32,000 nt of DNA from Sphingobacterium thalpophilum. GTDB taxonomy: Bacteria; Bacteroidota; Bacteroidia; Sphingobacteriales; Sphingobacteriaceae. The notes under the pieces are model-generated. The model did not search any database and was not told the origin of the DNA. It saw only the letters and a program-made list of their open reading frames with translations. The stretch's first letter is position 1; every line of letters begins with the position of its first letter. Shown piece by piece: positions 1 to 31,306 of the stretch. The translations under genes were made by a program, and so were the position numbers. The stretch covers positions 44,689-76,688 of the forward strand of contig CALRUR010000001.1 in assembly GCA_943371425.1 (NCBI GenBank). The letters are read 5' to 3'.

Positions 1-3000
1 TTAAAGAAGTTGTAGAACCCGTTAAGGTAATACCCGTAAAGTTTTGAGATGTGATGTTGTTATTTAAATTAATTACGTTGTTTGTAATTTTATTATAATT
101 TGAATTAGAACCTAAATGTATACCCCAACCAAAATTAGTGGCAGAGCTTACTGGTGTAATTATAAAACTATCAATAGTTACATAATCTGCACCATCAATA
201 TAAAAACCATAACGAATTGCAGAGTTGGTAGAATTAAAGTTTAACGCAACACCGTGGCCTTTAAATACAACGGTATTAATGGCACTTGTTCCAACTAAAT
301 CGTTAATTTTTATTTGCTCATTATACGGACCAGCATTTTTGTTTACATCAATAATTACAGGACCACAAACACCACGAGTATTTAAATCGTTTGCAGCATC
401 TGTTATACTTGGATACTTAGCTCCTACACCACCAACGGTATAGGTACCGCTCATGGCTGCTTTGTAATTAATGTTTAATAATGTATCGTTAGAAGTTCTA
501 TTATCTGCTACTGCGTTTGGTAAACTTGTCCATGCATTAATAGTATATGCGGTATCTAAACCAATTGTTCTGGTACCTACTATTACCATGGTATCTGCAC
601 CAGATCCAAGGGTTCCTGTATAAGAATGTGGAGTTTGTAAAACACCATTTATGCTCCAATTTATTTGTGCAGATGTTAAATCGTTAGCCCCGTAGTTTTT
701 CAATCTAAAACCTACTGGTACCAAACCAAAACATGAACCGTTAACTAAGGTCGAACCATTTAATCCGGCATCATTTAAAATTGGAGTAAACTCGTAAGCA
801 CCAGGGTCTGGGTTGGTAGCATTTCTTGTTACTCCATTAATATCATCGGTAACAGCAGCAAGTGGTGTACCCATGTTATTTACATCAAATGAATTTGGAG
901 TTAAATCTCCATTACTTGCATCGGCAAATAATGATCTTGCACTGATAGAATTTTGATCCCACATATTTGTGTTCGCAGTTTTCCAATCGGCTAAAGTTAC
1001 AAATGGGGTGGCTACAAAATAACCAACGTTACGTTGACCTGTTTTACCTACGGTGGTATCTACAAAAATATTGTTGTAATTAAACATCGCTGTTACATCA
1101 GCTGTATTAATCCATACCCCATGTTTATTACCATTTCCACCTTTTGTAATAGAAACATTGTTGTTTAAGTATCGCACTCCTGTTGCTGCACCTGTAGAAT
1201 ACAATCCACCAACATTACCTGCGGTAGCATTTGGGTTATCTATGTGTACGGTATTATTTAAATACTGAATACTATCGCTATTATTAGTATGTAAACCGTA
1301 GTGTATACCATTACTTTTAATGTTGTAAACTATATTGTTTTTAATGATTACTTCTTTACCTGCACGTGCATCATTCGCAGTAACATTTATACCAAAAAAT
1401 GTTGCAGTAGAACTTGGTACTTGGGTATAAGCATCGTGAATTTTATTTTTTGAAATACTTACCGCCTGACTGTTGCCAGTGATGTACATTCCATAACTTG
1501 TTACAAATAAAGTTCTATTTGGTTTAGAAATATCGTTAGCAAGAATTTGTGTACTATCTGTTGCTGTACTATAAATACCATATAAATTTGGATCGTAAAT
1601 AATATTATTTTGAAGTATATTACCTTTCATTAACTGCTGCGAACCTGTAGTACCAGCGAGTGCTATACCCGCATTTCCACCTTTAATAATATTATTTTCG
1701 ATGGTATTATAACTAGCAGAAGTTGCTTGCAAATAACTTGCGCTGCTTGCCGAAAAACTTATGCCAGAGAAATCTGCAGAGGTTGAATTTGCATCTAAAT
1801 TAATTCTACAATTTTTAATAGTATTGTTATTTGCATTGTTACCAATTACTACTGCGAGGCAATAGATAGAACCATCTTCATAATTAATTGTAAAATTATC
1901 GAAGGTGGTGTAATCGGTTCCATTTAAAAACAAAATATGTTTGTTGTTTACTTTTGCCGAATTAATAGTATCAGAAATTACGGCACCGTTACCGTTGAAA
2001 ATAATTTTATTAACAGCGCTAGTACCAACTATATTTTTTAATTCTAGTTGAGCAATGTACGGCCCGCTAGCAGCATCTACATTAAACGTAACAGGTGCAC
2101 AAACACCTCTCGCATTTAAATCATTTACTGCTGTAAGCATATCCGGATAATCTGCTCCAACACCACCAATTGTATAAACACCCGCTAAAGCCGGTCCGTT
2201 CATTTTCACATTTACCGTATCATTCGCCGGGAATTTATCGACAGCAGCATTTAAGCTACTTGTCCATGCTTTAATATTTATTGGCACAGCTGCCGGAAAA
2301 GTTTTACTGCCAATGGCAATTACACGACTAGCATTTTCTGGAATATTGCCAGTATAATTAAAGGGTGTTTGTGCCACACCGTTAAATTCCCAATCAACAA
2401 TTAAACTGGTAATGGCATTTGTACCTAAATTATTTACACGTATGCGTATAGAATCTGTAGAACCTGTACAAGCACCACTTGGACTTACTAATTCTACGGA
2501 TGTATTTAAATTATGTTTATAATCAATTCTTAATTGAGGGTGGTTAGCATTTGACGATGTAAGAGTGGCTGCGGGAGTACTACCAGCAGTTGAAGATGCA
2601 TATCTTGTAGATCCAGTTGCATAATCGGGCACACCTGTTTGTGTATCATAAATCCAAGTGATAGCAGTTGAAGCTGCTGTTTGGGTATACTCTACATAGA
2701 CGGCAAGATTATTACCATTGGCTCCATTAAAAATATAGGCGTTTGTAAATGGAAAAGTTTTAAAACCACTGGTGTTTCCTAAAATAGTATTCGGACTACC
2801 ATCAAATACTAAAGTAGCGTTGGAAATTTCTGTTGCCCATGTTAAGGTTCCTGGCCAAGTAGTAAGAGAAGTATTTTTAATATACATCTTAAAATTGGAA
2901 GTACCTGCAGGTGCTGTAGTAACTGCTTTCCTAAAGGCTAAGGCTAAAATTCTATCACCATCTGTAATGTTCGAAAACAAGGTGGAAGGATAAATATAAG

Positions 3001-3226
3001 CCGTGCGGTTATACCTAGCCGCAGTTGTACCACAATTCATTGGTCCCCAAGTTACAGAAGCTGTACTGGTTGCGCTTGGCCCAATTGTTATACTTTGAGC
3101 AAATAACTGAGAGCTAAGTAACAGTCCTAAAAATAAGACATACACGCCTCTGTAATTAATAACAGGAATTGAAAGGCTTAAGGCATAAAAAATGCCTTTT
3201 AAGCGAGAGCTTAAAGTGTTTTTCAT
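1..3226 (-). CDS. Large secreted/cell-surface protein with parallel beta-helix (PbH1-like) repeats and Ig/CARDB-like modules. It is 3'-partial: the C-terminus lies beyond the window start.
   Basis: Not in the ORF track. Manual reverse-complement translation from ATG (cat at 3224-3226) gives MKNTLSSRLKGIFYALSLSIPVINYRGVYVLFLGLLLSSQLFAQ|SITIGPSATS..., which contains a signal-peptide-like h-region. The frame is open where I checked it: 3226 down to about 3000, and positions 2-60 (..NITSQNFTGITLTGSTTSL). Frame arithmetic is consistent, with codon tops at 3226-3k reaching 4. No minus-strand ORF of 60 aa or more is listed in 1..3508, as expected if one stop-less ORF fills the region. Repeated N-rich turns (NTIENNIIKGGNAGIAL, IIKNNIVYNIKSNGIHYG, RYLNNNVSITKGGNG) are typical of right-handed beta-helices. 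Confidence 0.75.
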   Translation of the reverse strand, partial: MKNTLSSRLKGIFYALSLSIPVINYRGVYVLFLGLLLSSQLFAQSITIGPSATSTASVTWGPMNCGTTAARYNRTAYIYPSTLFSNITDGDRILALAFRKAVTTAPAGTSNFKMYIKNTSLTTWPGTLTWATEISNATLVFDGSPNTILGNTSGFKTFPFTNAYIFNGANGNNLAVYVEYTQTAASTAITWIYDTQTGVPDYATGSTRYASSTAGSTPAATLTSSNANHPQLRIDYKHNLNTSVELVSPSGACTGSTDSIRIRVNNLGTNAITSLIVDWEFNGVAQTPFNYTGNIPENASRVIAIGSKTFPAAVPINIKAWTSSLNAAVDKFPANDTVNVKMNGPALAGVYTIGGVGADYPDMLTAVNDLNARGVCAPVTFNVDAASGPYIAQLELKNIVGTSAVNKIIFNGNGAVISDTINSAKVNNKHILFLNGTDYTTFDNFTINYEDGSIYCLAVVIGNNANNNTIKNCRINLDANSTSADFSGISFSASSASYLQATSASYNTIENNIIKGGNAGIALAGTTGSQQLMKGNILQNNIIYDPNLYGIYSTATDSTQILANDISKPNRTLFVTSYGMYITGNSQAVSISKNKIHDAYTQVPSSTATFFGINVTANDARAGKEVIIKNNIVYNIKSNGIHYGLHTNNSDSIQYLNNTVHIDNPNATAGNVGGLYSTGAATGVRYLNNNVSITKGGNGNKHGVWINTADVTAMFNYNNIFVDTTVGKTGQRNVGYFVATPFVTLADWKTANTNMWDQNSISARSLFADASNGDLTPNSFDVNNMGTPLAAVTDDINGVTRNATNPDPGAYEFTPILNDAGLNGSTLVNGSCFGLVPVGFRLKNYGANDLTSAQINWSINGVLQTPHSYTGTLGSGADTMVIVGTRTIGLDTAYTINAWTSLPNAVADNRTSNDTLLNINYKAAMSGTYTVGGVGAKYPSITDAANDLNTRGVCGPVIIDVNKNAGPYNEQIKINDLVGTSAINTVVFKGHGVALNFNSTNSAIRYGFYIDGADYVTIDSFIITPVSSATNFGWGIHLGSNSNYNKITNNVINLNNNITSQNFTGITLTGSTTSL

Positions 3227-3515
3227 AATTTTAAAAAATTTAAAAATACTAGTATGGTAGTTGTAAATACTAATATCGCATATACTAGACAATTATAATA
3301 CCAAATACCCTTATTAATCTAGAAAAATTATCTTTAAATGCTTCTCAGAAATTTGAACTAATTATAAATTCATTCTATTTACCAAGAATTTTATATGAAA
3401 AAGCTTGAATATGTTTGAACAGATTTTTAAAAAAATTATTAAAAGAGATTAAGGTAACTTTTATGTTACATAGAAAATAAAGTATTAAATTATTCACAAT
3501 TCGTACCTTTAAACC

Positions 3516-4508
3516 ATGAAAAAAATAAGAGTAGCCATTAATGGTTTTGGAAGAATAGGAAGAGTTTTTTTAAGAAATGCATTATCAAATCCTGCCATAG
3601 AAATAGTAGCCATTAATGATTTAACTGATAATATAACTTTAGCACATTTATTTAAGTATGACTCAATACACAGAAGCTTTGCTGGAACGATAGCAGTAGC
3701 GGAAGATGGCTTAATTATTAATGGAAGACTCATTAAAAGCTTTGCAGAAAAAGACCCCAGTAATTTACCTTGGGCAGCGTTAAAAATTGATGTGGTAATA
3801 GAATCGACGGGCAAATTTTTAAGTAAAGAAAAAGCAAATTTGCATCTTAATGCCGGTGCCAAAAAAGTTATCCTTTCTGCCCCGCCAACAGATAAAGACA
3901 TCCCTACTATCGTACTAGGCGTAAACAATTCTATTTTAAAAGATAATTATCAGTTAATTTCAAACGCTTCTTGTACTACCAATAATGTGGCACCCATGGT
4001 AAAAGTGTTAGACGAGCTGGGTATAATAGAAGATGGATATATAACTACTGTACACTCGTATACTGGCGATCAGAATTTACACGACGCACCGCATAGAGAT
4101 TTGCGTAGAGCGAGAGCTGCCGCAGTATCAATGATTCCTACTAGTACAGGTGCTGCCAAAGCCATCACCAGTATTTTCCCACACCTCGAAAACAAACTTG
4201 GAGGTGCAGGAATTAGAGTACCAGTGCCTAATGGTTCGCTTACCGATTTTACTTGTTTGTTAAAAAAAGAATTAAGTGTTGCAGAAATTAATGCGGCTTT
4301 TAAACATGCTTCCGAGAATGAGTTAAAAGGTATACTTGAATATACCGAAGATCCAATTGTTTCAATTGATATACAAGAGAACCCACATTCGTGTGTGTTT
4401 GATGCTCAGTTAACATCTGTAGTGGGTAGGTTAGTAAAAGTAGTAGGTTGGTATGATAATGAATGGGGTTATTCTAATCGTTTAGCAGAGCTTTGTGTGC
4501 TTATTTAA
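3516..4508 (+). CDS. gap: Type I glyceraldehyde-3-phosphate dehydrogenase
   Basis: 330 aa. N-terminal NAD-binding motif INGFGRIGR, catalytic SNASCTTN motif and C-terminal WYDNEWGYSNR are hallmark GAPDH signatures. Confidence 0.97.
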   Translation: MKKIRVAINGFGRIGRVFLRNALSNPAIEIVAINDLTDNITLAHLFKYDSIHRSFAGTIAVAEDGLIINGRLIKSFAEKDPSNLPWAALKIDVVIESTGKFLSKEKANLHLNAGAKKVILSAPPTDKDIPTIVLGVNNSILKDNYQLISNASCTTNNVAPMVKVLDELGIIEDGYITTVHSYTGDQNLHDAPHRDLRRARAAAVSMIPTSTGAAKAITSIFPHLENKLGGAGIRVPVPNGSLTDFTCLLKKELSVAEINAAFKHASENELKGILEYTEDPIVSIDIQENPHSCVFDAQLTSVVGRLVKVVGWYDNEWGYSNRLAELCVLI

Positions 4509-5151
4509 TTAAGCGTTCGTTTAATGCTTTTGCAACTGCTTCTGCTTTACTCGCAACATGTAGTTTACCATATATATTACTGATGTGAGTTCTCACCGTA
4601 TCATAACTAATCATTAATTTATCGGTAATGGAATGATAAGAATTTCCTTCGGTTAGTAATTTTAGAATTTCTAATTCTCGTTTTGTTAAATGATAGTCTT
4701 CTTTATTTTCGGCGACAGGTAATTTAATTTCTTCAGAGAATTTTTTGAGAATTTTTCTGGCAATACTAGGTGTCATGGGAGCCCCGCCTTTAATTAATTC
4801 TTTTAAAGCATTCATAATATTTTTAGGGCTAGCACTTTTTAATAAGTAGCCTTGCGCACCTGCACAAATAGATCTAAAAATTTTATCGTCGTCTTCAAAA
4901 ACAGTAAACATTAAAATGGGTATCGATTTATCGTGTGCTCTAATTAAACTAACAGCTTCAATCCCATCCACTGGCGGAATTTCAATGTCCATAATTACCA
5001 AATCTGCTTCGGCATCTATAATATTTTGCACAACATTCTGATAATCTGGAAATGAATTTACAACCCGAAAATCATCGTACCCATTTATCATTAATTCTAA
5101 TGAAGTTCGAATTTTATGGTTATCGTCGAACAATACAACTTTGTGTGGCAT
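4501..5151 (-). CDS. Response regulator, NarL/FixJ (LuxR-type HTH) family
   Basis: 216 aa. The receiver domain has DLVIMDIEIPPVDG (phospho-acceptor Asp) and a conserved K in LLKSASP. The C-terminal HTH reads LTKRELEILKLLTEGNSYHSITDKLMISYDTVRTHISNIYGKLHV. The start sits 1 nt after the stop of the upstream kinase gene. Confidence 0.93.
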   Translation of the reverse strand: MPHKVVLFDDNHKIRTSLELMINGYDDFRVVNSFPDYQNVVQNIIDAEADLVIMDIEIPPVDGIEAVSLIRAHDKSIPILMFTVFEDDDKIFRSICAGAQGYLLKSASPKNIMNALKELIKGGAPMTPSIARKILKKFSEEIKLPVAENKEDYHLTKRELEILKLLTEGNSYHSITDKLMISYDTVRTHISNIYGKLHVASKAEAVAKALNERLIK

Positions 5152-5152
5152 A

Positions 5153-5866
5153 TTATTTATTTAGTGTATTAAGTGGAATTTTTAACATAATTTCTGTGCC
5201 TTCATTTAAGTTAGAGTTTAACAGTAACACCCCTCCTATTTCAGACGTACGTACTTTCATATTCAGTAATCCATTTCCCATTTTTATAGTGTCCTTATTA
5301 AACCCTAGTCCATCATCTTTTATTTTAATAAGTAAATGTTCATGGGTATTCCCTAGCTCAACCGAAATTGAGGTAGCTTTTGCATATTTAACCGCATTGT
5401 TTATGGCTTCTTTACAAATTAAATAAATATCTCTCCGTTTTAATAAATCTATCTTTTGTATATTCTTGGTTGTGTTTGAAAATAAAATTTCTATTTGATT
5501 AGATGCACACATCTGTTTTGCATAATCTTCAATTTTAACAAATAAATTTTCTAGGGAATCGTTTGCAGGGTTTACCATCCATACGATATCCGACATGCTT
5601 TCTACGGTTTGCCTCGCACTCTCGCCCATTTGAGTAAGTATTTGCAAGGCTTCTTGGTTTTTGTTATGTTCTATTCTTTGTTGCACGGCTTGTGCATAAA
5701 AAGAAATACTGCTAAGAGTAGCCCCTACATCGTCGTGCAAATCTCGTGCAATATTATTTCTAATTTTGCTGAGTTTTTTATGTTTGTTTGACTGAATATT
5801 ATTACTTCTGAAAAACAAAACACCTCCTATTACCATAAGAATGGAGCAAACAATAATAATTATCAT
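5153..5866 (-). CDS. Minimal sensor histidine kinase (HisKA_3 + HATPase_c) with a single N-terminal TM helix
   Basis: 237 aa. TM helix MIIIIVCSILMVIGGVLFF, H-box ARDLHDDVGATLSSI (HisKA_3 type), N-box EAINNAVKYA, G-boxes DDGLGF and GNGLLNM. It has essentially no extracytoplasmic domain. Confidence 0.9.
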   Translation of the reverse strand: MIIIIVCSILMVIGGVLFFRSNNIQSNKHKKLSKIRNNIARDLHDDVGATLSSISFYAQAVQQRIEHNKNQEALQILTQMGESARQTVESMSDIVWMVNPANDSLENLFVKIEDYAKQMCASNQIEILFSNTTKNIQKIDLLKRRDIYLICKEAINNAVKYAKATSISVELGNTHEHLLIKIKDDGLGFNKDTIKMGNGLLNMKVRTSEIGGVLLLNSNLNEGTEIMLKIPLNTLNK

Positions 5867-5951
5867 TAAATTGTGATGTTAAATTAATTAGCCCCTTAGG
5901 GAGATAATATTGACTAATTTAAACATTAAATTTGAATTGAATAATAGCAAA

Positions 5952-6533
5952 ATGAGATTCGAGAAAATTAGAGTGTATATAGAAAAACGTTTATTAGAAG
6001 AATTATCTGCTGAATATACTTACCATAGTTACATACATACCCAAGATGTATTAAAGGCAGCATTACTATATGCTGAATTAGAAGAATTGGCAGAAAAAGA
6101 TATTGAGTTATTAAAAGTCGCGGTATTGTTTCATGATTCGGGTTTTTTAATAAACCATAAAGAACATGAAATGCTAAGTTGCGAATTAGCTCGCTCTGTA
6201 CTCCCTCATTTTGATTATTCCGAAGATGAAATAAAAATTATATGTGGAATGGTTATGGCTACCAAAATTCCGCAAAACCCAAGAAGTAAACTAGAACAAA
6301 TTATTTGTGATGCCGATTTAGATTATTTAGGCAGAACAGATTTTTGGGAAATAGGGGCCTTACTATTTAAAGAATTAAGCTATTTAACCATTGTAAAAAA
6401 TGAAATAGAATGGAATAAAATTCAATTGAACTTTTTAGAAAATCATTCTTATTTTACTCAACATGCTATCGATTTACGCCACTCCACCAAACAAAAACAT
6501 CTGCAACAAGTAAAATTAAAAATCGATGAATAA
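5952..6533 (+). CDS. HD-domain metal-dependent phosphohydrolase
   Basis: Motifs H..HTQDV, LFHDSGF (HD dyad) and CDADLDYLG. The track ORF begins at a TTG (5910). The first ATG (5952, MRFEKIRVYIEK) is the more plausible start. Confidence 0.85.
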   Translation: MRFEKIRVYIEKRLLEELSAEYTYHSYIHTQDVLKAALLYAELEELAEKDIELLKVAVLFHDSGFLINHKEHEMLSCELARSVLPHFDYSEDEIKIICGMVMATKIPQNPRSKLEQIICDADLDYLGRTDFWEIGALLFKELSYLTIVKNEIEWNKIQLNFLENHSYFTQHAIDLRHSTKQKHLQQVKLKIDE

Positions 6534-7350
6534 AAATAGTAATTTATTGGTGCCCATAGATTTTAGTCCGGTAACAGAAAAAGCGCTGGAACATGCATGT
6601 ATATTAGCAAAGAACAATTCTGAACACATCCAACTGTTACATGTTATTAAAAATGAGGAGGAGCATATAGCCCAGGAAATTTTACGTAAACTTTCTCAAC
6701 TTGCCGAAAAATATAATTTGCAATACGGCATAAAAATTTTTCCGAACGTAGAAAGAGGAAATATTTTTAATACGATTAGTGATTTTTCGTTGGCTCAAAA
6801 ATCAAAACTTATAGTAATGGGCACACATGGGGTAAAAGGTATACAACACATTACTGGAGCCTTTGCGGTGCGAGTAATTTTAAGCAGTAAAGTTCCGGTA
6901 ATTATTACCCAACTCGAATCTGCATTACCCAAACAATATTCCAAAGTATTAATTCCCATTAATGAATCGGAAGCCATTAAACAGAAGTTATTAAAGGTTG
7001 TAGAATTTGCAAAAATGACGAATGCAAGTATTACTTTGTTCGAGAAAATTTCTACCGATGAAATTGAACAAAATAAAATTAGCTTGAATACTAATTTTTT
7101 CATGAAACATTTAGCTCAACACCAAGTGGAGGTGAATGTAACACGCATGCAAATGCAAAAAAACGATTTCAGCAAAGCATACATAGAGGCAGCCATTGGG
7201 TTGCAAGCAAATTTAATTGTAATTTTAACTACACCCGAAAAAGGGATTAAAGATTTAGTACTTGGCCCTTTAGAGCAACAAGTAATAAACAATACAGCGA
7301 AAATCCCTGTGATGTGTATAAATACCTTACAAACTATTTATTCAGAATAG
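6526..7350 (+). CDS. Tandem-domain universal stress protein (UspA family)
   Basis: 274 aa with two Usp-like halves (LLVPIDFS...[11 protein letters not shown] and VLIPINES...). The start overlaps the HD gene stop by 8 nt (ATGAATAA), suggesting co-translation. Confidence 0.9.
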
Positions 7351-8527
7351 CGGCAACACCGGGTAGTACTTTTCCTTCCATGTATTCTAACAATGCCCCA
7401 CCACCTGTAGACACATAAGAAACATCGTCTGATAAATTAAACTTTGCTACTGCAGCAGCAGAATCGCCACCACCAATTAAAGAGAAGGCACCGTTTTTTG
7501 TAGCTTCTACAACAGCCAATGCTATTTCTTTGGTACCCTTTTCAAAGCTACTCATTTCAAAAACACCCATCGGGCCATTCCACAAAATAGTTTTCGAATT
7601 GGCAATTATTTCTTTAAAAGTGCTGATTGATTTCGGACCAATATCTAAACCCATCCATCCATCGGGTATGGTATCATTATTGGCTATCGATTGTTTAGCA
7701 TCGTTGTTAAATGCATCGGCAATAATAGAATCTGTTGGAAGCGCAAGATTTACTCCTTTCGCTTTTGCTTTTTCTATTAAACTTAATGCCAATTCTAATT
7801 TATCTTGTTCAACCAAAGAGGAACCAATGTTGCCTCCCATTGCCTTTGCAAAAGTGTAGGCCATGCCGCCACCAATAATAATATTGTTTACGGTGTCTAA
7901 TAATTTTTCAATCAATAAAATTTTATCCGAAACTTTTGCACCACCCATAATGGCGGTGAAAGGTCTATCAGCATTATTCATTACTTTCTCGGCATTTGTT
8001 AATTCATTTGCCATCACATAACCAAACACTTTAGCGGTAGGGAAATAATTGGCTACAATGGTTGTAGAAGCGTGTGCTCTGTGTGCAGTGCCAAAAGCAT
8101 CGTTCACATATACATCACCATGTTTTGCTAATTTTGCAGCAAATCCATCGTCGCCTTTTTCTTCTTCTTTATAAAATCGCAGATTTTCTAATAACAAAAT
8201 TTCGCCTGCTTTTAAATTAGCAGATTTAGAAAATGCATCATCCGAAATACAATCATCTGCAAATAATACAGGAGCATGAGTAAGTTCAGCTAAATGCTTT
8301 ACAATATGTTTTAATGAATACTTTTCTACAGGCCCTTCTTTTGGTCGGCCGAGGTGCGACATTAATACTACCGAACCACCATCTGTTAAAATCTTTTTGA
8401 TGGTAGGCAGTGCAGCACGCATACGTGTATCGTCTGTAATTTCAAAAGCAGCATTTAAGGGTACATTAAAATCAACACGAATTAAGGCGCGTTTACCTTG
8501 GAAGTTTATGGTATCAATTGTATTCAT
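7334..8527 (-). CDS. pgk: Phosphoglycerate kinase
   Basis: 397 aa. Contains [34 protein letters not shown] and [12 protein letters not shown], the classic PGK motifs. Confidence 0.97.
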
Positions 8528-8582
8528 TTCTGTAATTTTATTTGAGGCAAAAATAACACATTATCTCAAACTCAAAGCACAT

Positions 8583-8632
8583 TAGCACACTATCTTACTA
8601 GCATACTAACTAACTAGCATACTAGCACACTA
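8583..8632 (+). repeat. TAGCACAC/TAGCATAC word repeat immediately 3' of the motB-like gene (overlaps its stop)
   Basis: tagcacac ta tcttac tagcatac taac taac tagcatac tagcacac taa. Confidence 0.75.
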
Positions 8633-9316
8633 ATAATGTATCCTCAACACCACTCTCCTATTTACAGATTGGTTTGCTGGTATGGGTTCTCCTTTGGGGT
8701 TTCTATTTGGAACAACTGGTTGAGTATCGGCATAGCCTGAAGCTTTTAACCTCCCCGGCGACATTCCTCTATCAATTAAATACCTTACCACATTAGAGGC
8801 TCTTGCTACAGATAACTCCCAGTTAGAGGGGTATTGTAAATTACTAATCGGATTATCGTCGGTATGCCCTTCAACGTCAATTTGGAAATCTGCTTTCTTG
8901 CGTTTATTTACCGCATCAATTACATCAAAAATTTTATCTACAATTTCTTTCCCCTCTGGTAATAACATGGCATCGCCACTGTTGTAAAAGGAGTTGCTTA
9001 AGAAACGCATGTTTATGGCATTGTCTTTATTCTCAATTTCTAAACTATTGCTTTTTACTTCTTGCATCAACATAGAATCTAGCTGATACTTTATTTCGCT
9101 TAGTGGAGTTGACACTTTTTTGCTTTTTACTTTGGAGCTGTAGCTGGCTTTTATTTGATCCCACACATTTTGATCGATGTTAGCCGAGGAAAAAAGTAAA
9201 ATAAAAAAACATAACAAAAGAGTAATTAAATCGGCATACGTAATAAGCCAAAGCTCTTGCTCGGGTTCTCCAAGCAAGGTTTTCTTTACTTTCCTTTTAT
9301 TATCCTCAACACTCAT
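8630..9316 (-). CDS. MotB-like stator B subunit (single TM with conserved Asp, C-terminal OmpA-like peptidoglycan-binding domain)
   Basis: 228 aa. The TM region WLITYADLITLLLCFFILLF carries the Asp equivalent to the proton-carrying MotB Asp. The OmpA-like domain reads VEGHTDDNPI...SNWELSVARASNVVRYL...ASGYADTQP...NRRVVLRI. Confidence 0.9.
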   Translation of the reverse strand: MSVEDNKRKVKKTLLGEPEQELWLITYADLITLLLCFFILLFSSANIDQNVWDQIKASYSSKVKSKKVSTPLSEIKYQLDSMLMQEVKSNSLEIENKDNAINMRFLSNSFYNSGDAMLLPEGKEIVDKIFDVIDAVNKRKKADFQIDVEGHTDDNPISNLQYPSNWELSVARASNVVRYLIDRGMSPGRLKASGYADTQPVVPNRNPKGEPIPANQSVNRRVVLRIHY

Positions 9317-9321
9317 TTTAT

Positions 9322-10143
9322 TTATTTTGTGCTTTTGGTTTGTGTATCTGTATCGCGGCTTACAAACGACATTAATTGATCGCGAATTACCAATGCAGGT
9401 TTATTTTCTTTTATCAATAACATACCTTCTAAAATAATGATCTCTCTGCGTTGTGTATGTAAGGCATTAAATTTTATTTTTTTTGATAAGGGGATGAAAA
9501 ATAAGTTTGCAGAAGCCACTCCGTATAAAGTACCAATTAAACCGGTAGATATACCAGGGCCAATATTAGATGGATCGCTTAAATTATTTAACATCACAAT
9601 CATCCCCAACACCGTTCCCACCATACCAAAGGCTGGTGCGGCATTTGCCATGGCATGAAAAACATCTGATAATTGCAATGACTGTGCATAATCTTTTTCA
9701 ATACTCGTTTCGCCCATGTTTCTAATATCGTGCGATGAATAGTTAGTATTGTATAAATCGAAAAGCATTTTCACAAAAGGATCTTTTTCTGATTGCGAGA
9801 TACTATTTATAAATTCTTTTTTATCTTTTTTTAATCGCTCCGACCAGTTCACCACCATATCCACATCTTCGTTAATAGATAATGCTTTGTGTTTTGTTTG
9901 ACTAAATAATTGACCGAAATTTTTGAATGCAGCAAAAACTACATTTACCGGGTACATTACAAACATTGAGGCTAATACTCCTCCAAACACAATAAAAAAT
10001 CCGGCGAAATGAATGAACGGATTTTTTATAAAGTTAGGTAAATAATGTTCTATACGAATGGCTCCTGCTGTATCCATAATTCCGACAACCATGAAAACAC
10101 TGCATATGAGAAAGCCTATGAAGGATCCAATTGAAAATTTCAT
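9322..10143 (-). CDS. MotA-like stator A subunit (MotA/TolQ/ExbB proton-channel family, 4-TM MotA architecture)
   Basis: 273 aa. Two N-terminal TM helices, a roughly 100-aa charged cytoplasmic loop, then APAFGMVGTVLGMI and GLIGTLYGVASANLFFIPLSKKI (both conserved channel prolines present). The MotA-type C-terminal tail reads IILEGMLLIKENKPALVIRDQL. Confidence 0.9.
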   Translation of the reverse strand: MKFSIGSFIGFLICSVFMVVGIMDTAGAIRIEHYLPNFIKNPFIHFAGFFIVFGGVLASMFVMYPVNVVFAAFKNFGQLFSQTKHKALSINEDVDMVVNWSERLKKDKKEFINSISQSEKDPFVKMLFDLYNTNYSSHDIRNMGETSIEKDYAQSLQLSDVFHAMANAAPAFGMVGTVLGMIVMLNNLSDPSNIGPGISTGLIGTLYGVASANLFFIPLSKKIKFNALHTQRREIIILEGMLLIKENKPALVIRDQLMSFVSRDTDTQTKSTK

Positions 10144-10144
10144 A

Positions 10145-10708
10145 TTATTTTTTTGAAGTAATATCTTTTAATTCTTTTGCTGAGGGCACTCTAATTTCTG
10201 GGTCGAGTTTAGCAGCTTGTATCCATAATGCTTTCGCTTTTTCCTCATCACCCATCACATACAAAATGCTTCCTTTTAATGAAAGTGCTTCTGCCGTTTC
10301 AATTATTTTGAGTGATTCTTCCACATAATCTAATGCCGAACTGTAATCATCAACATATAAAAACTCTTGCGCTCTACGGTAATTTTTGAGCGCAACATTA
10401 ATAGCATCTTGAGCTTCTTTACTTACATTTAAAGTACCATCAATTAAATCTTTTTTAGATTTCGGATCGGTATTCATAGACAATACAAACTCTTCATTGC
10501 CTTTACCAACTGCATATTCTATTGAGGATGCATTGTTTTTATATTTTACATTCACAGGGTCTTTTAGAGAATACGCTCTTCTGGCGTTTTCTGCAATTCG
10601 TTGCTGCTCTGCCAAATCTTGTACGGTATATCGAGTATCGCAGGCTTGTACAGCAAACACACATAAAAGCAATAATATACTACGGCCTATAGATGAAACT
10701 AATCCCAT
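10145..10708 (-). CDS. Lipoprotein with C-terminal TPR-like repeats
   Basis: The track ORF runs to 10735. The internal Met (10708) gives MGLVSSIGRSILLLLCVFAVQAC, a lipobox-like signal with Cys. TPR-like helices follow: AQEFLYVDDYSSALDYVEESLKI..ALSLKGSILYVMGDEEKAKALWIQAAKLDPE. The stop lies 1 nt before the motA-like start. Confidence 0.7.
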   Translation of the reverse strand: MGLVSSIGRSILLLLCVFAVQACDTRYTVQDLAEQQRIAENARRAYSLKDPVNVKYKNNASSIEYAVGKGNEEFVLSMNTDPKSKKDLIDGTLNVSKEAQDAINVALKNYRRAQEFLYVDDYSSALDYVEESLKIIETAEALSLKGSILYVMGDEEKAKALWIQAAKLDPEIRVPSAKELKDITSKK

Positions 10709-11747
10709 ATCCAAATTGTTGTAATTGTAAAACACTGTTTTCTTTTGTAAACTGATTAATCAACATAAAATACCTAAAGTCTACTTCTAAACTTAAGTTT
10801 TGTGATGCATTAAATATTATACCTTGACGAGCGTATGGTGTAATTGAATTTGCTATGTACACATTCATAGATTGGAAAGCTTCTAACCAATATTTTCGGG
10901 GCTGATCGTTTTTCTTTAAAAAAGCAATGGTATAAAACAAGCCTCCATGTGGCAGTACACTGGTAAACTTTGCAATGCCCGTATCTGTTCCTGATGTTAA
11001 CAAATTTAAGAAAGACATACCTGCATTTATTCCATAAAAACCAGATTGATTTTTATTCATTGATTGACGCCAATTAACAGATAAATCTGCACAAGTTGCC
11101 GTAAATTTTTTCCCATTAGATATATCGATATTATCTATTAAATAAGATTGTGTATTATAAAAAGCAACCCCTGCTGTAGCAGAGAATTGAGCTTTACGTG
11201 GGTTGTATAATTGAGGATTTGAATTAATAATAGTACTGTAAATTAATTCTTTTGATCGAGATTTTACTAATTGTAAATTAACTTGATAACCTGTAATATG
11301 ATCATACGTTAATTGCACATACATTAATGCTTGTAAAGAATACTTATCAATTACAGCATCCATCTTTTCTTCATCAAGTATTAATCTTTCAAGAGTGTTC
11401 TGTCTGGTAATTGTTAAGTTAGAATCTGTACCGTTTACAATGGTTAATGGTTTTTGTTTAAACTCTGGTGCTGCTACTATGGTAAAACCACTTACTGCAA
11501 ACACCCCTTCAATTCTGCTTTTAATTTGAATCGCTTCTGTTTCGTTAATAATATAATCTGGATAATCAAAAGATACCAATGCAACTCGTTTGTACAACAA
11601 ATCATTTAAACGAACTTTGTCGGCAATTTCATCCATCAACTCAACTAACTCTAGTTGCTTACGGATGATAGGATTATTTTTATCTACTTGTGCTTTTAGA
11701 TTTAATACTCCAATGGTTAATATAATAAACAATACTATCTTTTTCAT
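10680..11747 (-). CDS. Secreted protein: periplasmic alpha/beta domain followed by a probable outer-membrane beta-barrel
   Basis: 355 aa. Signal peptide MKKIVLFIILTIGVLNLKAQ. The N-terminal segment RVALVSFDYPDYIINETEAIQIKSRIEGVFAVSGFTIVAAPEF resembles the TolB-N/CsgG/FlgO-type motif. The C-terminal half has alternating hydrophobic strands and an aromatic-rich end (GYGISFIYRP), as in OM barrels. The function is inference only. Confidence 0.55.
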   Translation of the reverse strand: MKKIVLFIILTIGVLNLKAQVDKNNPIIRKQLELVELMDEIADKVRLNDLLYKRVALVSFDYPDYIINETEAIQIKSRIEGVFAVSGFTIVAAPEFKQKPLTIVNGTDSNLTITRQNTLERLILDEEKMDAVIDKYSLQALMYVQLTYDHITGYQVNLQLVKSRSKELIYSTIINSNPQLYNPRKAQFSATAGVAFYNTQSYLIDNIDISNGKKFTATCADLSVNWRQSMNKNQSGFYGINAGMSFLNLLTSGTDTGIAKFTSVLPHGGLFYTIAFLKKNDQPRKYWLEAFQSMNVYIANSITPYARQGIIFNASQNLSLEVDFRYFMLINQFTKENSVLQLQQFGYGISFIYRP

Positions 11748-13597
11748 TAAGCAACAAGTTTTAAAGTTCTACGAATAGAATCGATGATAATTTTACGTGA
11801 ATGATCTCTTTCATCAGGGCTTACCGGATTTCCGCTTTCGAGTTCAGATTTAATAAGCGACTGCTCACGTGGTGCGCGTTGTGATATTACTTTGTTTTGT
11901 ACATGTGTGCTTAAGCCTGTTAATGCTTGCACAAGTGTATTGGTATCTATGTCTCTCAATGCCGTTTCTAACTGAAGATCCGTTAGGTACACCACATTTT
12001 TAAACCCTACAAACTGTTGTTTAATATTATTTGCTAACTCTAAATCTTGTGATGCTATAGAACTAATTAATTGATCTTGATCTTCGTCTTGCATTTGATC
12101 TAAAATGTCTAAAATAGATTGTAATCCGTCAAAGGCTACATTCTTCATACCCTTCACATCTATTGCTTTCTTAGAGAAATACGTTGCCACCTCTCTATAG
12201 ATAGAAGATGAAATGAAATCAATTTTACTCATCTTCATTAATATAGAGGAGCGTCTGTTTATTTCTATCATTCCCAAAACATTCTTGGTTCTCTTGCTCT
12301 CTAATTGGGCTAAAAGTATCGCCGATAAATTATCGTCCTCTTCTTTTAACATATGTATAATTTGCGAATCAGTAATTTGATTTAAGAACTCAAATAAATC
12401 TTCATTCCTATCTGGCTCCGCGTTTAAGGATAATAGCTCTTTACTAAAATCTCTTGCTTCTTGATATTTATCGTTATGAGATTTTAATTGATGATTAGAT
12501 ACTGCTTGATTTAATTCGCTGTATGCATTTTCTGCCATAAACGGACGTAAAAAATTCAACAGCTTTGGGTTCACTGCACTCAGTGCATTGGCTGCTCTTG
12601 CTCTTCCTTCTTCTGGGTTGGTAAGCATCCAAGCCTCTATCATTCCGGCAACTTCTTTAGGGTTACTAATTACACTTGTAATAACATGTTGGCGATTAAA
12701 TTCGTAATTAATAATGTCTTCTGTTTGGTAAGAGGATGCTCCATCTGGACCATTCCCGTTAGGATATATAACACTTAGCTCTTGGCCATTTGCATTTTGT
12801 CCGTTCAATAATTTTGGGTCTTCTTCTTTATTTTTCTTCTCTGGATCTTTGCTTTTGCGATATAATAAATACGTAACAAAAACTATTATAATTAAACATA
12901 GAATTAGTAATACTACAAATACATATAACAAAGTATTATCGGTTTCTGCCTTTAATGGCTCTGGCTTTTCATCTCTTTGAATGGGCTCCTGTGGCCTTTG
13001 CTCTGGCAAATAATTGGGTTGTTGCACTGGGCGTGTATTTGCACCAGCTCCTCCTGCAAATAAATCTTCTTTATCTTTCGGGAATACCGATCGCTTAATT
13101 TTTACTACATCACCCTTTGTTTCGTCAATTGGAATAATAGAACGAACTAATGAATTTATAAAATCGATGTCGGTATTTGCATAGGTAGTATCTACAATTA
13201 TGCTGATGTATAAATAGTCAACTTCTTCTATGCTGTAGGTATAATTTTTAGAGGTATCTGTTTCTGTATCTTGGTAACCTTTTGGTAATACTGGCATGCC
13301 CGGTAAACGTTGCAAGGTTTTTTTCTTTCTAGTTGCAGCAACTGGTTTTATTACCTCCACATTTCCTTTCAACATGTTTATGTCTACCAAAAAAGTACTT
13401 GGCGAAAAGAATTTAGTTAACTCTTGCCTAATTACAATTTCAAAATTGTTGGCTTCGTTTAAAGGTTCGGCTCCTTGTCCGCTTTTGGGTTGGTATAAAA
13501 ACGACTGCGCTTTACTCGTATATTCAATTGTGTTGAATAACAAGAGCAATAGCAAAAACAGAAACTTATACATTGGGTTAGTTTTTATGCTCAGCAT
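11747..13597 (-). CDS. Membrane-anchored FliF/YscJ-like (periplasmic ring-building motif) + FliG-like (cytoplasmic N/M/C domains) fusion protein
   Basis: 616 aa. Signal peptide (M)YKFLFLLLLLLFNTIEYTSKAQ, with an alternative ATG at 13573. Periplasmic residues ~52-172 have an alpha-beta-beta-alpha-beta pattern (EIVIRQELTKFF / FLVDINM / YLYISIIVD / DIDFINSLVRSII / VVKIKRS). A P/Q-rich linker is followed by a TM helix at residues 223-246 (LLYVFVVLLILCLIIIVFVTYLLY, then RKSKDPEKKNK, positive-inside). Cytoplasmic residues ~305-613 carry FliG-like motifs: ITDSQIIHMLKEEDDNLSAILLAQLESKRTKNVLGMI, DQLISSIASQDLELANNIKQQFVGFKNVVYLTDLQLETALRDIDTNTLVQALTGLS, and ISQRAPREQSLIKSELESGNPVSPDE. The CDS itself is near certain. 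The domain assignment rests on motifs only. Confidence 0.6.
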   Translation of the reverse strand: MLSIKTNPMYKFLFLLLLLLFNTIEYTSKAQSFLYQPKSGQGAEPLNEANNFEIVIRQELTKFFSPSTFLVDINMLKGNVEVIKPVAATRKKKTLQRLPGMPVLPKGYQDTETDTSKNYTYSIEEVDYLYISIIVDTTYANTDIDFINSLVRSIIPIDETKGDVVKIKRSVFPKDKEDLFAGGAGANTRPVQQPNYLPEQRPQEPIQRDEKPEPLKAETDNTLLYVFVVLLILCLIIIVFVTYLLYRKSKDPEKKNKEEDPKLLNGQNANGQELSVIYPNGNGPDGASSYQTEDIINYEFNRQHVITSVISNPKEVAGMIEAWMLTNPEEGRARAANALSAVNPKLLNFLRPFMAENAYSELNQAVSNHQLKSHNDKYQEARDFSKELLSLNAEPDRNEDLFEFLNQITDSQIIHMLKEEDDNLSAILLAQLESKRTKNVLGMIEINRRSSILMKMSKIDFISSSIYREVATYFSKKAIDVKGMKNVAFDGLQSILDILDQMQDEDQDQLISSIASQDLELANNIKQQFVGFKNVVYLTDLQLETALRDIDTNTLVQALTGLSTHVQNKVISQRAPREQSLIKSELESGNPVSPDERDHSRKIIIDSIRRTLKLVA

Positions 13598-22297: not shown

Positions 22298-25200
22298 ATG
22301 TTAAATGCTATCATTTCATTTTCTGTACGTCAGAAACTGATCATCGCGTTATTTACCTTTAGCCTTGTGCTTTGGGGTATATACGAAGCCACGCGTTTGC
22401 CTATTGATGCGGTTCCGGATATTACCGACAATCAGGCTCAAATTATTACCATTAGTCCGGCATTGGGTGCGCCCGATGTAGAACGTCTCATAACCTTTCC
22501 TATAGAACAAGCGAATAGCAATATTCCAGGCATCAAAAAAATTAGAAGTTTTTCTCGCTTTGGTTTATCGCTCGTAACCATTGTTTTTGAAGATGAGGTG
22601 GATATTTATTGGGCGCGACAACAAATTGCGGAGCGATTATTAAAAGTACAAAACGATTTACCAAAAGGTGTTGGCAACCCAGAGTTGGCTCCGGTGACTA
22701 CGGGCCTCGGCGAAATATACCAATACGTAGTGCGCGCAGAGAAAGGCTACGAAGAAAAGTATTCGATTTCCGATTTACGAACCATACAAGATTGGATCAT
22801 CCGCCGTCAGCTCTTAGGAGTAAAAGGTGTTGCAGATGTATCGAGTTTTGGAGGTGCTTTAAAACAATATGAAGTAAGCATTAACCCAGCGCAATTGCAA
22901 GCAAATGGCATAAGCATTAACGAAGTGTTTGAAGCCTTAAACAGCAACAACTCTAATACCGGTGGTGCTTATATAGAACGAGGCGATGGAATTTTATACA
23001 TACGCTCGGAAGGTTTATTAAAAACATTTGCCGACATAGAAAACATAGTTGTAAAAACGAATAGCTCCGGAACGCCTCTACGTATTAGAGATGTAGCCAA
23101 AGTTCAATTTGCAGAAGCAGTGCGTTACGGTGCCATGTGTTATAACGCAGATGGTGAAGTAGCCGGTGCCATTGTAATGATGTTGAAAGGAGCAAACTCC
23201 TCTGAAGTTATAGATAATGTAAAAACCAGAATCGAGGAAATTCGAAAAACATTACCCGAAGGAATTGTGCTCGAAGCATTTCTAGACCGCAGTAAAATGG
23301 TGAACAATGCCATTGGTACGGTGGAGAAAAATTTAATGGAAGGTGCCCTCATCGTTATTTTTGTGCTCGTTTTATTCCTCGGTAATTTACGCGCTGGATT
23401 AATTGTTGCATCGGTAATTCCACTATCTATGTTGTTCGCCATTATAATGATGAACTTATTTGGAGTGAGTGGAAATTTAATGAGTTTGGGTGCCATTGAT
23501 TTTGGATTAATTGTGGATGGTGCGGTTATTATTGTGGAAGCCATTATGCATCAGCTCAGCCATTCTAAAAGGTTTGTAAATATTACGAAACTGAGTCAAT
23601 CAGAAATGAACGAAGAGGTAAACAGTTCGGCTTCTAAAATGATGAACTCTGCGGTATTCGGTCAGATTATAATTTTAGTGGTGTATTTGCCCATCTTTTC
23701 TTTACAAGGCATAGAAGGTAAAATGTTTTCGCCAATGGCTGCTACGGTTGCCTTTGCGCTTGTTGGAGCATTTTTATTATCGCTCACCTATGTACCCATG
23801 ATGAGTTCTTTATTCATCTCTAAAAAAATAAAACACGAGCCAAATATTTCTGATAGAGTAATGATTGCCTTAGAAAAGAAATATCAACACGCTTTAGAAT
23901 TTGTACTCAACCATAAACGTAAAAGTTTAGCACTCGTATTCGCTATTTTCTTATTTTCTATTTTCTTACTATCGAACATGGGTGGCGAGTTTATTCCCGA
24001 ACTAGAAGAAGGAGATTTTGCAGTAGATACCAGAGTACTCACAGGAAGTAATTTAAACACTACTATAGAAGGCACACAAGCCACTGCAAAAATATTGTTA
24101 GAGAAATTTCCGGAAGTAGAAAAGGTAGTAACTAAAATTGGTAGTGGCGAAATTCCTACCGACCCCATGCCTATTGAAGCGAGTGACATGATGGTAATTT
24201 TGAAAGATAAATCGGAATGGACTTCGGCAGAAACCTATGATGAACTCGCAGAAAAAATGAGTGAAGAATTAGCTGCAGTTCCCGGCTTAACAGTAGGCTT
24301 TCAGTACCCAGTGCAAATGAGGTTTAATGAACTAATGACAGGTGCACGACAAGATGTGGTGTGTAAAATTTTTGGCGAAGATTTAGACACCTTGGCATTG
24401 TATGCACATAAACTAGGAGAAATTATAAAAACAGTGGATGGCGCGAAAGACTTGTATGTAGAGGCGATTGGCGGCATGCCACAAATTGTTATTCAATACA
24501 AAAGAGAAGCATTGGCACAATACGGTATTAGTGTTGATGAAATAAATAGTACCGTAAATGCTGCATATGCAGGTGCAGTAAGTGGTAAAATTTACGAAGG
24601 CGAAAAACAATTTGATTTGGTAGTACGCATGGATAAAAATTTCAAAAATGATATGGAAAGTTTAGAGAATTTGTTGGTGAGCAGAACAAATGGTTCCTCT
24701 GTTCCTTTAAGTTTACTTGCCGATATTTCTATTATTGATGGACCCAACCAAATACAAAGAGAAGATGCCAAACGAAGAATTATTATTGGCTTTAACGTAA
24801 GAGGTAAAGATGTGCAAACCATAGTTACCGAATTAAAAGCAAAGGTGGATAAACAAATAAAACTTCCGCCGGGATATTATACCGTTTACGGAGGATCTTT
24901 CGAAAATTTAGTAGCTGCAACCAATCGTTTAGCAGTGGCAGTTCCTCTCTCTTTATTATTAATTTTATTGATGTTGTATTTTGCATTTGGATCTGTAAAA
25001 CAAAGTATCTTAATATTTAGTGCTATTCCGCTCTCTGCCATTGGTGGTATATTCGCCTTAAGTTTACGTGGCTTACCTTTTAGTATTTCTGCAGGCATTG
25101 GTTTTATTGCACTCTTTGGGGTAGCTGTATTAAACGGAATTGTATTGATTGCAGAATTTAACCGATTGAGAAAAGAAGGTTGGCATGATGCAAGGCAAAT

Positions 25201-26641: not shown

Positions 26642-26686
26642 AACAGTACGCTGTATGTTGTACAGTGTACATTGTAAAACATACAG
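26612..26686 (+). terminator. (AATTGTG)n tract encoding the last residues and stop of the RND-OMF gene, followed by a TGTACAG/ACATACAG word hairpin
   Basis: gaattgttaattgtgaattgtgaattgtaa (26612-26641) encodes ELLIVNCEL*. The stem is ctgtatgtt (26651-26659) paired with aacatacag (26678-26686). Confidence 0.6.
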
Positions 26687-26707
26687 TATACGTAATAAAC
26701 TAAAAAG

Positions 26708-28106: not shown

Positions 28107-28145
28107 TTCATTCACAATTCACAATTCATAATTCATAATTCAACC
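28107..28145 (+). repeat. Tandem CACAATT/CATAATT heptamers overlapping the stop codon of the T9SS gene 28133..29626
   Basis: ttcattcacaattcacaattcataattcataattcaacc. It ends in the same cataattcaac string as 22284-22294. Confidence 0.8.
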
Positions 28146-29626: not shown

Positions 29627-29659
29627 TGATGATATTTTATTCTAAGATAATGATTTTTT

Positions 29660-31304: not shown

Positions 31305-31306
31305 AA

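Follow-up and report, generated by a model that had tools for sequence, protein, structure and literature searches.

Fusions of the flagellar proteins FliF and FliG, both full-length and with deletions, were reportedly engineered in Salmonella by Francis in 1992 and by Thomas in 2001. Covalent FliF-FliG fusions assemble rings and rotate in Salmonella (PMC4768692, PMC7355467, PMC6079021), showing that a single-chain architecture is mechanically viable. A natural FliF-FliG fusion has been inferred for the Chlamydiaceae by Bergeron in 2016 (PMC4768692); this protein of about 330 amino acids (aa) has two ring-building motifs (RBMs), two transmembrane (TM) segments and only a FliG_M-like tail, and was proposed to be an injectisome partner. 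It is the closest precedent for the protein described here, which is encoded on a stretch of 32,000 nucleotides (the window) of contig CALRUR010000001.1, assigned to Sphingobacterium thalpophilum. An initial annotation of the window had claimed a natural single-chain rotor of the FliF-FliG type; given the chlamydial protein, such a natural fusion is not unprecedented as such. The window protein, which we call FliFG, has 616 aa and joins a shortened FliF to FliG; its gene is the first of five tightly packed minus-strand genes, followed by the genes for a 355-aa protein and a TPR protein and by motA and motB (Table 1). The reading that we favour, with somewhat better than even confidence, is that these genes encode a stand-alone, ion-driven envelope motor, in which a FliF-FliG ring would be driven by MotAB and act on an outer-membrane partner. 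We found no description of the FliFG family in full-text searches of the literature, and papers on Fibrobacter proteomics name no more than generic MotA/TolQ/ExbB proteins.

Translation of the window recovered the open reading frame (ORF) of FliFG at the length and position first proposed. Its product starts with a probable signal peptide, followed by a periplasmic RBM3-like domain, one TM helix, the FliF C-terminal FliG-binding helix and the FliG N, M and C domains. An N-terminal hydrophobic segment is present in most family members according to hydropathy; in FliFG it is short and followed by a conserved Ala-Gln junction, and thus resembles a cleavable signal peptide rather than the first TM helix of FliF (TM1). 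The initial annotation had likewise read a signal peptide but had placed the cleavage site between Q31 and S32. In Bacteroidota, signal peptidase I tends to cut in front of a Gln (the "Q-rule"), and since Q31 is conserved in 76% of 135 family members, cleavage between A30 and Q31 is probable. The TM helix, proposed earlier for residues 223-246, was found again as a hydropathy peak at 223-241 and as a helix of residues 221-249 in the structural model. Directly after it follows RKSKDPEKKNK, and the positive-inside rule thereby puts the FliG part in the cytoplasm.

For the FliF half, residues 28-300 were modelled with AlphaFold2 (AF2) from a diverse family alignment of 36 sequences without templates; an earlier full-length model from a shallow alignment of 13 sequences had reached a predicted local distance difference test score (pLDDT) of 48 and was not used for the fold search. 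The core of the model (pLDDT 95-98) contains helix 44-61, strands 69-85 and 119-136, helix 141-154, strand 164-170 and the TM helix, and the two long strands of the RBM3-like domain have 17 residues each. This is the alpha-beta-beta-alpha-beta arrangement that had been read from the sequence as an RBM, and the Foldseek search against PDB agrees with it: the top 18 matches are all FliF MS-ring or RBM3-collar structures (E 3.8e-7 to 1e-4, probability 1.0), including 6sd1_A, described as "RBM3/collar region", and the Vibrio S-ring. PrgK, EscJ and SpoIIIAG rank below FliF (E 2e-3 to 6e-2; 2.3e-3 to 1.6e-2 for SctJ/PrgK/EscJ). As modelled, the periplasmic domain is therefore FliF RBM3/beta-collar-like and closer to FliF than to SctJ, PrgK and EscJ.

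Profile comparisons gave a similar picture. The Pfam model YscJ_FliF_C (PF08345) stays below its threshold for FliFG alone (21.3 bits, cutoff 23.8) and is recorded for the relatives P0004, P0012, P0013, P0026 and P0131, and the family profile matches residues 404-559 of Salmonella FliF in PDB (E=3.6e-9). A D-x-RGD-x-(L/V)-x-V...F motif in front of TM2 is common to the family and FliF and is represented here by K161 G162 D163 ... F172 P173. RBM1 and RBM2 are absent from FliFG: there is one periplasmic domain of about 130 residues, no match to PF01514 was obtained, and the alignment with FliF starts only at residues ~382-404. The most conserved motif of the family is LPG(L/M)P (P99 in 99%, G100 in 97%), and the loop in which it lies is a candidate partner-binding tip.

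The similarity to FliF continues up to the end of that protein. The family consensus "ignPkevakvledWik" aligns with the end of Salmonella FliF, "ndPrvvalvirqWMsndhe", to the last residue, 560, and likewise with Vibrio FliF, "nePelaaqvvknWMndnG", to residue 580. The helix follows the pattern NPxxVAxxIxxWM; 78% of the family keep W323 and 76% keep P313. In flagella, this C-terminal FliF helix with its conserved Trp binds FliG_N (PMC4768692; PMC7355467). FliFG is FliF without RBM1 and RBM2, its natural C-terminus being joined to the natural N-terminus of FliG. Read-through between adjacent fliF and fliG genes together with an N-terminal deletion would yield exactly such a protein.

That the C-terminal half is FliG-like, as had been suggested from an alignment by eye, is supported far beyond chance. 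Pfam FliG_C (PF01706) matches with 1e-16 (61.6 bits, cutoff 23.3), FliG_M (PF14841) matches residues 411-481 with 6.6e-8 (33.1 bits, cutoff 25), and a phmmer search of PDB retrieved Thermotoga maritima FliG (1lkv) with 4.6e-17. In the same search, residues 42-315 of Salmonella FliG align with FliFG 336-611, colinearly and over almost equal length. The Pfam FliG_N model gave 21.7 bits for FliFG alone (cutoff 25) and was placed elsewhere, at residues 425-515. A profile built from 134 full-length members matches FliG in PDB with 2.4e-49, spanning residues 12-326 of the full-length FliG of A. aeolicus, and the family profile separately matches the FliG_N fragment 5tdy_B (8.3e-5). The colinear alignments and the FliG_N profile match indicate that the N, M and C domains of FliG are all present. 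An unrelated helical fold of the MgtE_N type, which the initial annotation had named as the outcome that would speak against its proposal, reached 18.2 bits, a sub-cutoff score far weaker than those of the FliG models, and was rejected. The score for the NCBIfam equivalog TIGR00207 is 85.9 bits with a trusted cutoff of 226.7; thus FliFG is a FliG homologue but not an equivalog. The MFXF hinge of FliG reads FVGF in FliFG, and the FliM-binding EHPQ motif is replaced by E420-D-D-N, of which only the Glu is conserved family-wide. Since this motif is lost and no FliM or FliN is encoded nearby, the proposed analogy to a C-ring goes too far, and what is left would be a FliG ring only.

For the torque-helix segment, the earlier register, based on SQRA, was off by three residues. 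In the HMMER alignment, anchored on NPV/GPV, it is R577 (within APRE) and not R574 that lies opposite E. coli R281; S584 lies opposite D288 and E585 opposite D289. T560 and S593 are found opposite K264 and R297, so that neither of these charges is kept in FliFG. Of the charges claimed before, one acidic residue (E585, equivalent to D289) thus holds, whereas the arginine of SQR does not, R574 being Arg in only 40% of the 134 members. At position 577, 129 of 134 members (96%) have a basic residue, which is Arg in 112 (84% of the family) and Lys in 17; acidic residues occur in 52% of the members at 585 and in 24% at 584. Judging from this alignment, the functionally dominant torque-helix Arg within P-x-R-E is a hallmark of the family and the classical five-charge pattern is not.

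The adjacent stator postulated earlier was confirmed, and MotA and MotB are co-operonic with FliFG in distant relatives too. MotA matches Pfam MotA_ExbB (PF01618) with 1.1e-20. Among the NCBIfam models, those for flagellar motor proteins (PRK09109, MotP, PomA, MotA) score 1e-39 to 1e-29 versus 2e-4 for TolQ and 0.05 for ExbB, and the MotA/PomA structures in PDB are matched with 9e-26 to 5e-14. By these scores the stator A subunit is of the flagellar type and not of the TolQ/ExbB type. MotB carries MotB_plug (PF13677, 8.2e-16) and the OmpA-like peptidoglycan-binding domain (PF00691, 1e-16), matches the NCBIfam models MotD/MotB/MotS with 4e-44 to 8e-32, and has its TM channel Asp at D29, in Y27-A28-D29. 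The best NCBIfam equivalog scores are below the cutoffs for both subunits (MotA 135.8 with a cutoff of 237, MotB 151.1 with a cutoff of 283). In flagellar stators, charges of the MotA cytoplasmic loop pair with FliG, namely R90 and E98 in E. coli and R88, K89, E96 and E97 in PomA. The corresponding loop of the window MotA contains K105-K106-D107-K108-K109, with D107 invariant in six operons, and a pairing of such loop charges with R577 and E585 would be plausible.

The two remaining genes of the operon code for non-flagellar partners. The 355-aa protein gave no match in Pfam, NCBIfam or PDB, including a search of PDB with a profile of six sequences. It carries a signal peptide, its C-terminal half is enriched in aromatic residues and Gly and shows alternating hydrophobicity (enrichment in 6/6 orthologues), and the orthologues end in YYF, YLF, VRF or IYRP, depending on the lineage. 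Because aromatics, Gly, alternation and such terminal residues are typical of outer-membrane beta-barrels, the protein probably consists of a periplasmic N-terminal domain and a C-terminal outer-membrane beta-barrel. Fibrobacterales, Elusimicrobiota and other lineages carry orthologues of its gene within the corresponding operon. The TPR protein (Pfam TPR_2, 3.5e-7) is kept in all operons examined and has a Cys after a hydrophobic segment in 6/6 orthologues (VQAC, FSSC, LSAC, LMGC, IYGC). The mechanical start of its ORF is the GTG at 10735, but the orthologues start at a Met that matches the ATG at 10708 (MGLVSS...), which is probably the true start of this lipoprotein. With either start, the ORF shares 29-56 nucleotides with the end of the 355-aa gene, suggesting translational coupling.

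Stator units with a 5:2 stoichiometry are rotary (PMC9389320, PMC12704724). Since, in addition, RBM3 drives assembly of the MS-ring, MotA pushes on FliG_C and FliF-FliG fusions rotate, we infer a ring motor, whose assembly, rotation, charge pairing and output would be as follows. Like RBM3 of FliF, the RBM3-like domain would oligomerise into a ring at the periplasmic side of the inner membrane, with a FliG ring on the cytoplasmic side. MotA5B2-type units, anchored to peptidoglycan by the OmpA domain of MotB, would let ions pass the MotB Asp29 channel and exert force on the FliG_C torque helix at R577/E585, thereby turning or loading the ring. The LPG(L/M)P collar tip would couple this movement to the TPR lipoprotein and the probable outer-membrane 355-aa protein. 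Such a motor would operate without export gate, rod, hook, filament and FliM/FliN switch. The more specific proposal, that the five genes make up a free-standing rotary nanomachine of non-flagellated bacteria of the Fibrobacteres-Chlorobi-Bacteroidetes (FCB) group and of Elusimicrobiota, coupled through its collar to an outer-membrane/TPR complex and devoid of export gate, rod, hook and filament, we hold at slightly less than an even chance.

Several points weigh against the ring motor. Only two of the five classical FliG charges are kept here (the equivalents of R281 and D289), and family-wide only the Arg is strongly kept. On the side of the stator, HMMER and MAFFT differ by three residues in where they put KKDKK against PomA R88/K89, and the acidic pair E96/E97 of PomA has no clear equivalent in the MotA alignments. 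FliFG, MotA and MotB all score under the NCBIfam equivalog cutoffs and are thus not orthologues of the canonical flagellar proteins. The probable fold and location of the 355-aa protein are based on sequence features only. Moreover, the lack of RBM1 and RBM2, export gate and rod would leave the ring without an evident filling or load.

The loss of most torque-helix charges and of the EHPQ switch-binding motif, as well as the lack of a rod or axle gene in the operon, would also fit a function of the same proteins without continuous rotation. FliFG would then be a membrane scaffold or adaptor that recruits and un-plugs MotAB, and a Tol/Ton-like pulling force or conformational signal would be passed on to the TPR lipoprotein and the outer-membrane partner, for example in envelope maintenance, secretion or surface-protein movement. 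In composition, an ion-channel pair, a TPR lipoprotein, an OmpA-like domain and a probable outer-membrane protein do recall Tol-Pal with CpoB, by what is established about that system. We nevertheless regard this explanation, the main rival of the ring motor, as unlikely, though worth keeping in mind: MotA is a flagellar-type subunit, MotB carries a flagellar plug, their partner would be a cytoplasmic FliG_C whose key Arg is kept in 96% of members, and the periplasmic domain corresponds to the ring-forming RBM3. Furthermore, 5:2 motors are thought to be rotary in all known systems (PMC9389320), so that some rotary step would still be likely.

With a profile search of 1.84 billion cluster representatives we obtained 2179 matches with E<=1e-3, 99 of them with E<1e-30. 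About 130 of the best 150 of these matches are 560-760 aa long, and nearly all of the ~130 have an N-terminal hydrophobic segment, ~200 residues, a TM helix and ~350 residues of FliG. Nearly invariant in the family are LPG(L/M)P at 98-102, D136, F146, G162-D163, F172-P173 and F402/F404. The members come from Fibrobacterales, Bacteroidota, Bacteroidales, Elusimicrobiota, one metagenome-assembled genome (MAG) labelled "Pseudomonadota" and Tara Oceans data; in the databases they are labelled "FliG C-terminal domain-containing protein", "flagellar motor switch protein FliG" (IMG) or hypothetical. The closest relatives of FliFG, with 92-94% identity, are encoded on contigs of uncultured freshwater Sphingobacteriales MAGs. 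In one cluster (P0142 / P0188), the FliFG gene is called as a single product of 754 aa, in which FliFG is followed by a lipoprotein-like signal (MKRHYLIILFVLPFFWTSC) and then a TPR domain; FliFG and the TPR protein may truly be fused there, or the gene call may have read through.

The neighbourhoods of the relatives are included in Table 1. In the loci that keep all five genes in order outside the close relatives of the window (L013, L014, L015, L016 and L019), the identity to the window FliFG is only ~23-27%, and across the Fibrobacterales, Elusimicrobiota and Bacteroidales MAGs it is ~20-27%; hidden Markov models (HMMs) built from six operons confirm the homology of the partner genes. The protein of about 1000 aa that precedes FliFG in L018 matches the HMM of the TPR lipoprotein with 3.9e-25. 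Since the surrounding genes differ by lineage, the conserved unit consists of FliFG, the TPR protein, MotA and MotB together with a variable component, and this variable fifth component is probably located in the outer membrane, as far as its sequences tell.

Table 1. Positions of the FliFG operon and of the protein regions of FliFG in the window, and gene order in related loci (positions given for these loci refer to the loci themselves).
Feature	Position	Strand	Basis or remark
FliFG gene (FliF-FliG fusion, 616 aa)	11747..13597	-	ORF and domain searches
Probable signal peptide, residues 1-30	13508..13597	-	K-rich n-region, FLFLLLLLLF h-region, SKA before Q
FliF RBM3/beta-collar-like domain, residues 44-173	13079..13468	-	AF2 and Foldseek; alpha-beta-beta-alpha-beta
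LPGMP, residues 98-102, loop between long strands	13292..13306	-	family conservation and AF2
Single TM helix, residues 221-249, FliF TM2 equivalent	12851..12937	-	hydropathy, AF2, FliF alignment
FliF C-terminal tail and FliG-binding helix, residues 291-326 (N312 P313 ... W323 M324)	12620..12727	-	profile alignment
FliG N-terminal domain, residues ~327-400	12398..12619	-	FliG alignment, family profile
FliG middle domain, residues ~401-500; F402-x-F404 nearly invariant	12098..12397	-	Pfam FliG_M
FliG C-terminal domain, residues 513-610	11768..12061	-	Pfam FliG_C, PDB 1lkv, family profile
Torque-helix equivalent, residues 572-587	11837..11884	-	gapless HMMER alignment to T. maritima FliG
355-aa gene, secreted product, no known family	10680..11747	-	ATG overlaps FliFG stop (ATGA)
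TPR lipoprotein gene, 187 aa from probable start ATG 10708	10145..10708	-	Pfam TPR_2, lipobox Cys
MotA-type stator A subunit, 273 aa	9322..10143	-	Pfam MotA_ExbB, NCBIfam, PDB
MotB-type stator B subunit, 228 aa	8630..9316	-	Pfam MotB_plug and OmpA, NCBIfam
L009, L011, close relatives of window			same five genes
L013, Fibrobacterales MAG			five genes, order kept
L014, 1.36-Mb contig (Fibrobacterales)			five genes, order kept
L015, metagenome contig			five genes, order kept
L016, Elusimicrobiota MAG			five genes, order kept
L019, 298-kb contig			five genes, order kept
L020, distant clade	6224-11436		permuted: 352 aa, TPR, FliFG, MotA, MotB
L022, Bacteroidales MAG	4961-11883		FliFG-TPR-MotA-MotB kept; upstream ~1000-aa Ig-like/TPR protein replaces 355-aa gene
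L018, Bacteroidota MAG	4903-10432		~1000-aa Ig-like/CarboxypepD_reg-like protein with C-terminal TPR precedes FliFG in place of 355-aa gene
L021, 3.3-Mb contig			FliFG, three short genes (229, 86, 175 aa; last with weak TPR match), MotA, MotB
L017, "Pseudomonadota" MAG			212-aa gene with weak outer-membrane beta-barrel matches 3' of FliFG

The ratio of nonsynonymous to synonymous substitution rates (dN/dS), calculated against the orthologues with 92-94% identity, is ~0.03 overall and 0.01-0.02 in each structured half, and FliFG is thus under purifying selection. Non-flagellated lineages do keep scattered flagellar genes (PMC12199754, PMC9927559), and the operon could accordingly be suspected to be a decaying, functionless relic of an ancestral flagellar cluster. 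This explanation is effectively refuted by selection and synteny and hardly merits belief: besides the low dN/dS, no reading frame is disrupted, several phyla have kept the multi-gene module at protein identities of 20-30% and even in permuted order, and the family-specific motifs are nearly invariant.

In the window and the operon neighbourhoods examined, we found no genes for FliM/FliN, flagellar export, rod, hook or filament near the operon. These negatives cover neighbourhoods rather than whole genomes, which leaves room for a true flagellum whose other genes lie elsewhere in the genome and to which FliFG would belong as accessory or alternative rotor. The IMG name "flagellar motor switch protein FliG" would suit such a role, and some relatives of Fibrobacteres, some Elusimicrobiota and some Bacteroidota-related lineages are flagellated. 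Against it stand the absence of RBM1 and RBM2, the part of FliF that holds the export gate, and the missing FliM-binding EHPQ; the operon has its own MotAB and two non-flagellar partners and is, in every lineage seen, a self-contained unit amid housekeeping genes. In addition, the window belongs to the Sphingobacteriales, for which we know of no flagellated members, and shows type IX secretion system (T9SS) cargo genes instead. We therefore consider a flagellar role improbable and retain the stand-alone envelope motor as the preferred reading.

The MotAB pair could also have belonged to a Zorya defence system, but this was ruled out, since PADLOC reported only a generic ZorB (=MotB), no ZorA for MotA and no matches of the ZorC or ZorD type. 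The genes flanking the operon are housekeeping genes, namely pgk, gapdh, a two-component system, dapD, an S4/Hsp15-like gene, a glycosyltransferase gene and miaA. The two-component pair (4501-5866, minus strand) encodes a HisKA_3 histidine kinase of 237 aa that apparently lacks both a sensor and a TM region, together with a response regulator of the LuxR type; it lies ~3 kb downstream of motB, past pgk, and no link to the module was seen in other lineages. The G+C content of the window is 30-40%, and scans for tRNA and Rfam elements detected no tRNA, rRNA or other Rfam element in it. An RNA feature was thus ruled out as the reason for the ORF-poor region 1-3500, which contains a long minus-strand ORF instead: from ~3291 to the start of the window, more than 1097 codons stay open in one frame, which continues beyond the edge.

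At the other end of the window, three successive minus-strand genes (28133-31999; 497, 495 and at least 230 aa) each encode a C-terminal Por_Secre_tail type IX sorting domain. The organism is thus a T9SS-bearing Bacteroidota, in which the FliFG/MotAB module coexists with the T9SS. On the plus strand, 22298-27847 encodes a pump of the AcrB family, of the resistance-nodulation-division type, with 1447 aa; ACR_tran matches residues 5-1034 only, leaving a C-terminal extension of ~410 aa unexplained, and a gene for an HlyD-type membrane-fusion protein is located 3' of the pump gene.

From its sequences, the FliFG module appears to present flagellar rotor and stator parts in a new, self-contained combination. 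To our knowledge, torque generation between FliG and MotA is known only inside flagella, and other 5:2 motors deliver their output on the periplasmic side. If the envelope motor exists as proposed, the core of the flagellar motor would be separable as a functional module without secretion and axial parts, which bears on a long-standing question about the origin of the flagellum, the joining of rotor-stator system and type III export system. The module might be an exaptation, with the core of the flagellar motor turned to a new task in the envelope, such as surface motility, secretion or outer-membrane work; it might also be a surviving model of a rotor-stator module independent of the flagellar secretion system. 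A naturally minimal one-protein rotor without FliM/FliN switch would offer a system for reconstitution. The module also points to an envelope function that depends on energy and is carried out by Bacteroidota, Fibrobacterota and Elusimicrobiota that are abundant but uncultured in freshwater, the sea and the gut. The current FliG labels, moreover, can make non-flagellated genomes seem to carry rotor remnants.

Compared with FliF and FliG of the Salmonella, Vibrio and T. maritima flagella, FliFG shares the RBM3/beta-collar, the RGD...F motif, TM2 and the NPxxVAxxIxxWM helix on the FliF side, and the N-M-C domain order and spacing, the torque-helix Arg equivalent to R281 and one acidic residue on the FliG side. 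A co-encoded MotA/MotB pair with plug, Asp and peptidoglycan-binding domain is common to both systems. In flagella, however, FliF and FliG are two polypeptides and FliF has RBM1, RBM2 and TM1, whereas FliFG is one polypeptide without RBM1/2 and with an N-terminus that looks like a cleavable signal peptide; the equivalents of K264, D288 and R297 and the EHPQ motif of FliG are not kept. The gene neighbourhood differs as well, with a TPR lipoprotein and the 355-aa protein as partners and without FliM/FliN, export, rod, hook and filament genes.

GldLM/PorLM of the T9SS, TolQR-TolA, ExbBD-TonB, AglRQS and ZorAB resemble the module in that an inner-membrane MotAB-like unit powers an envelope process in non-flagellated bacteria, with partners of the outer-membrane and TPR/OmpA type. 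In all of them (Gld/Por, Tol, Ton, Agl, Zor) the output is delivered via the periplasmic part of the B-type subunit or of a TonB/TolA-like protein, with neither a FliG-like rotor nor a FliF-like ring. With the fusion of the Chlamydiaceae, compared here by its description only, FliFG has in common that a shortened FliF and FliG-like sequence are naturally joined and that the organisms are not believed to have flagella. It differs from it in having 616 aa, one RBM, a full FliG and its own MotAB, a dedicated stator not having been described for the chlamydial protein. The engineered Salmonella fusions, finally, contain all three RBMs and work within a complete flagellum with FliM/FliN, whereas FliFG is natural, reduced and set in a different gene context.

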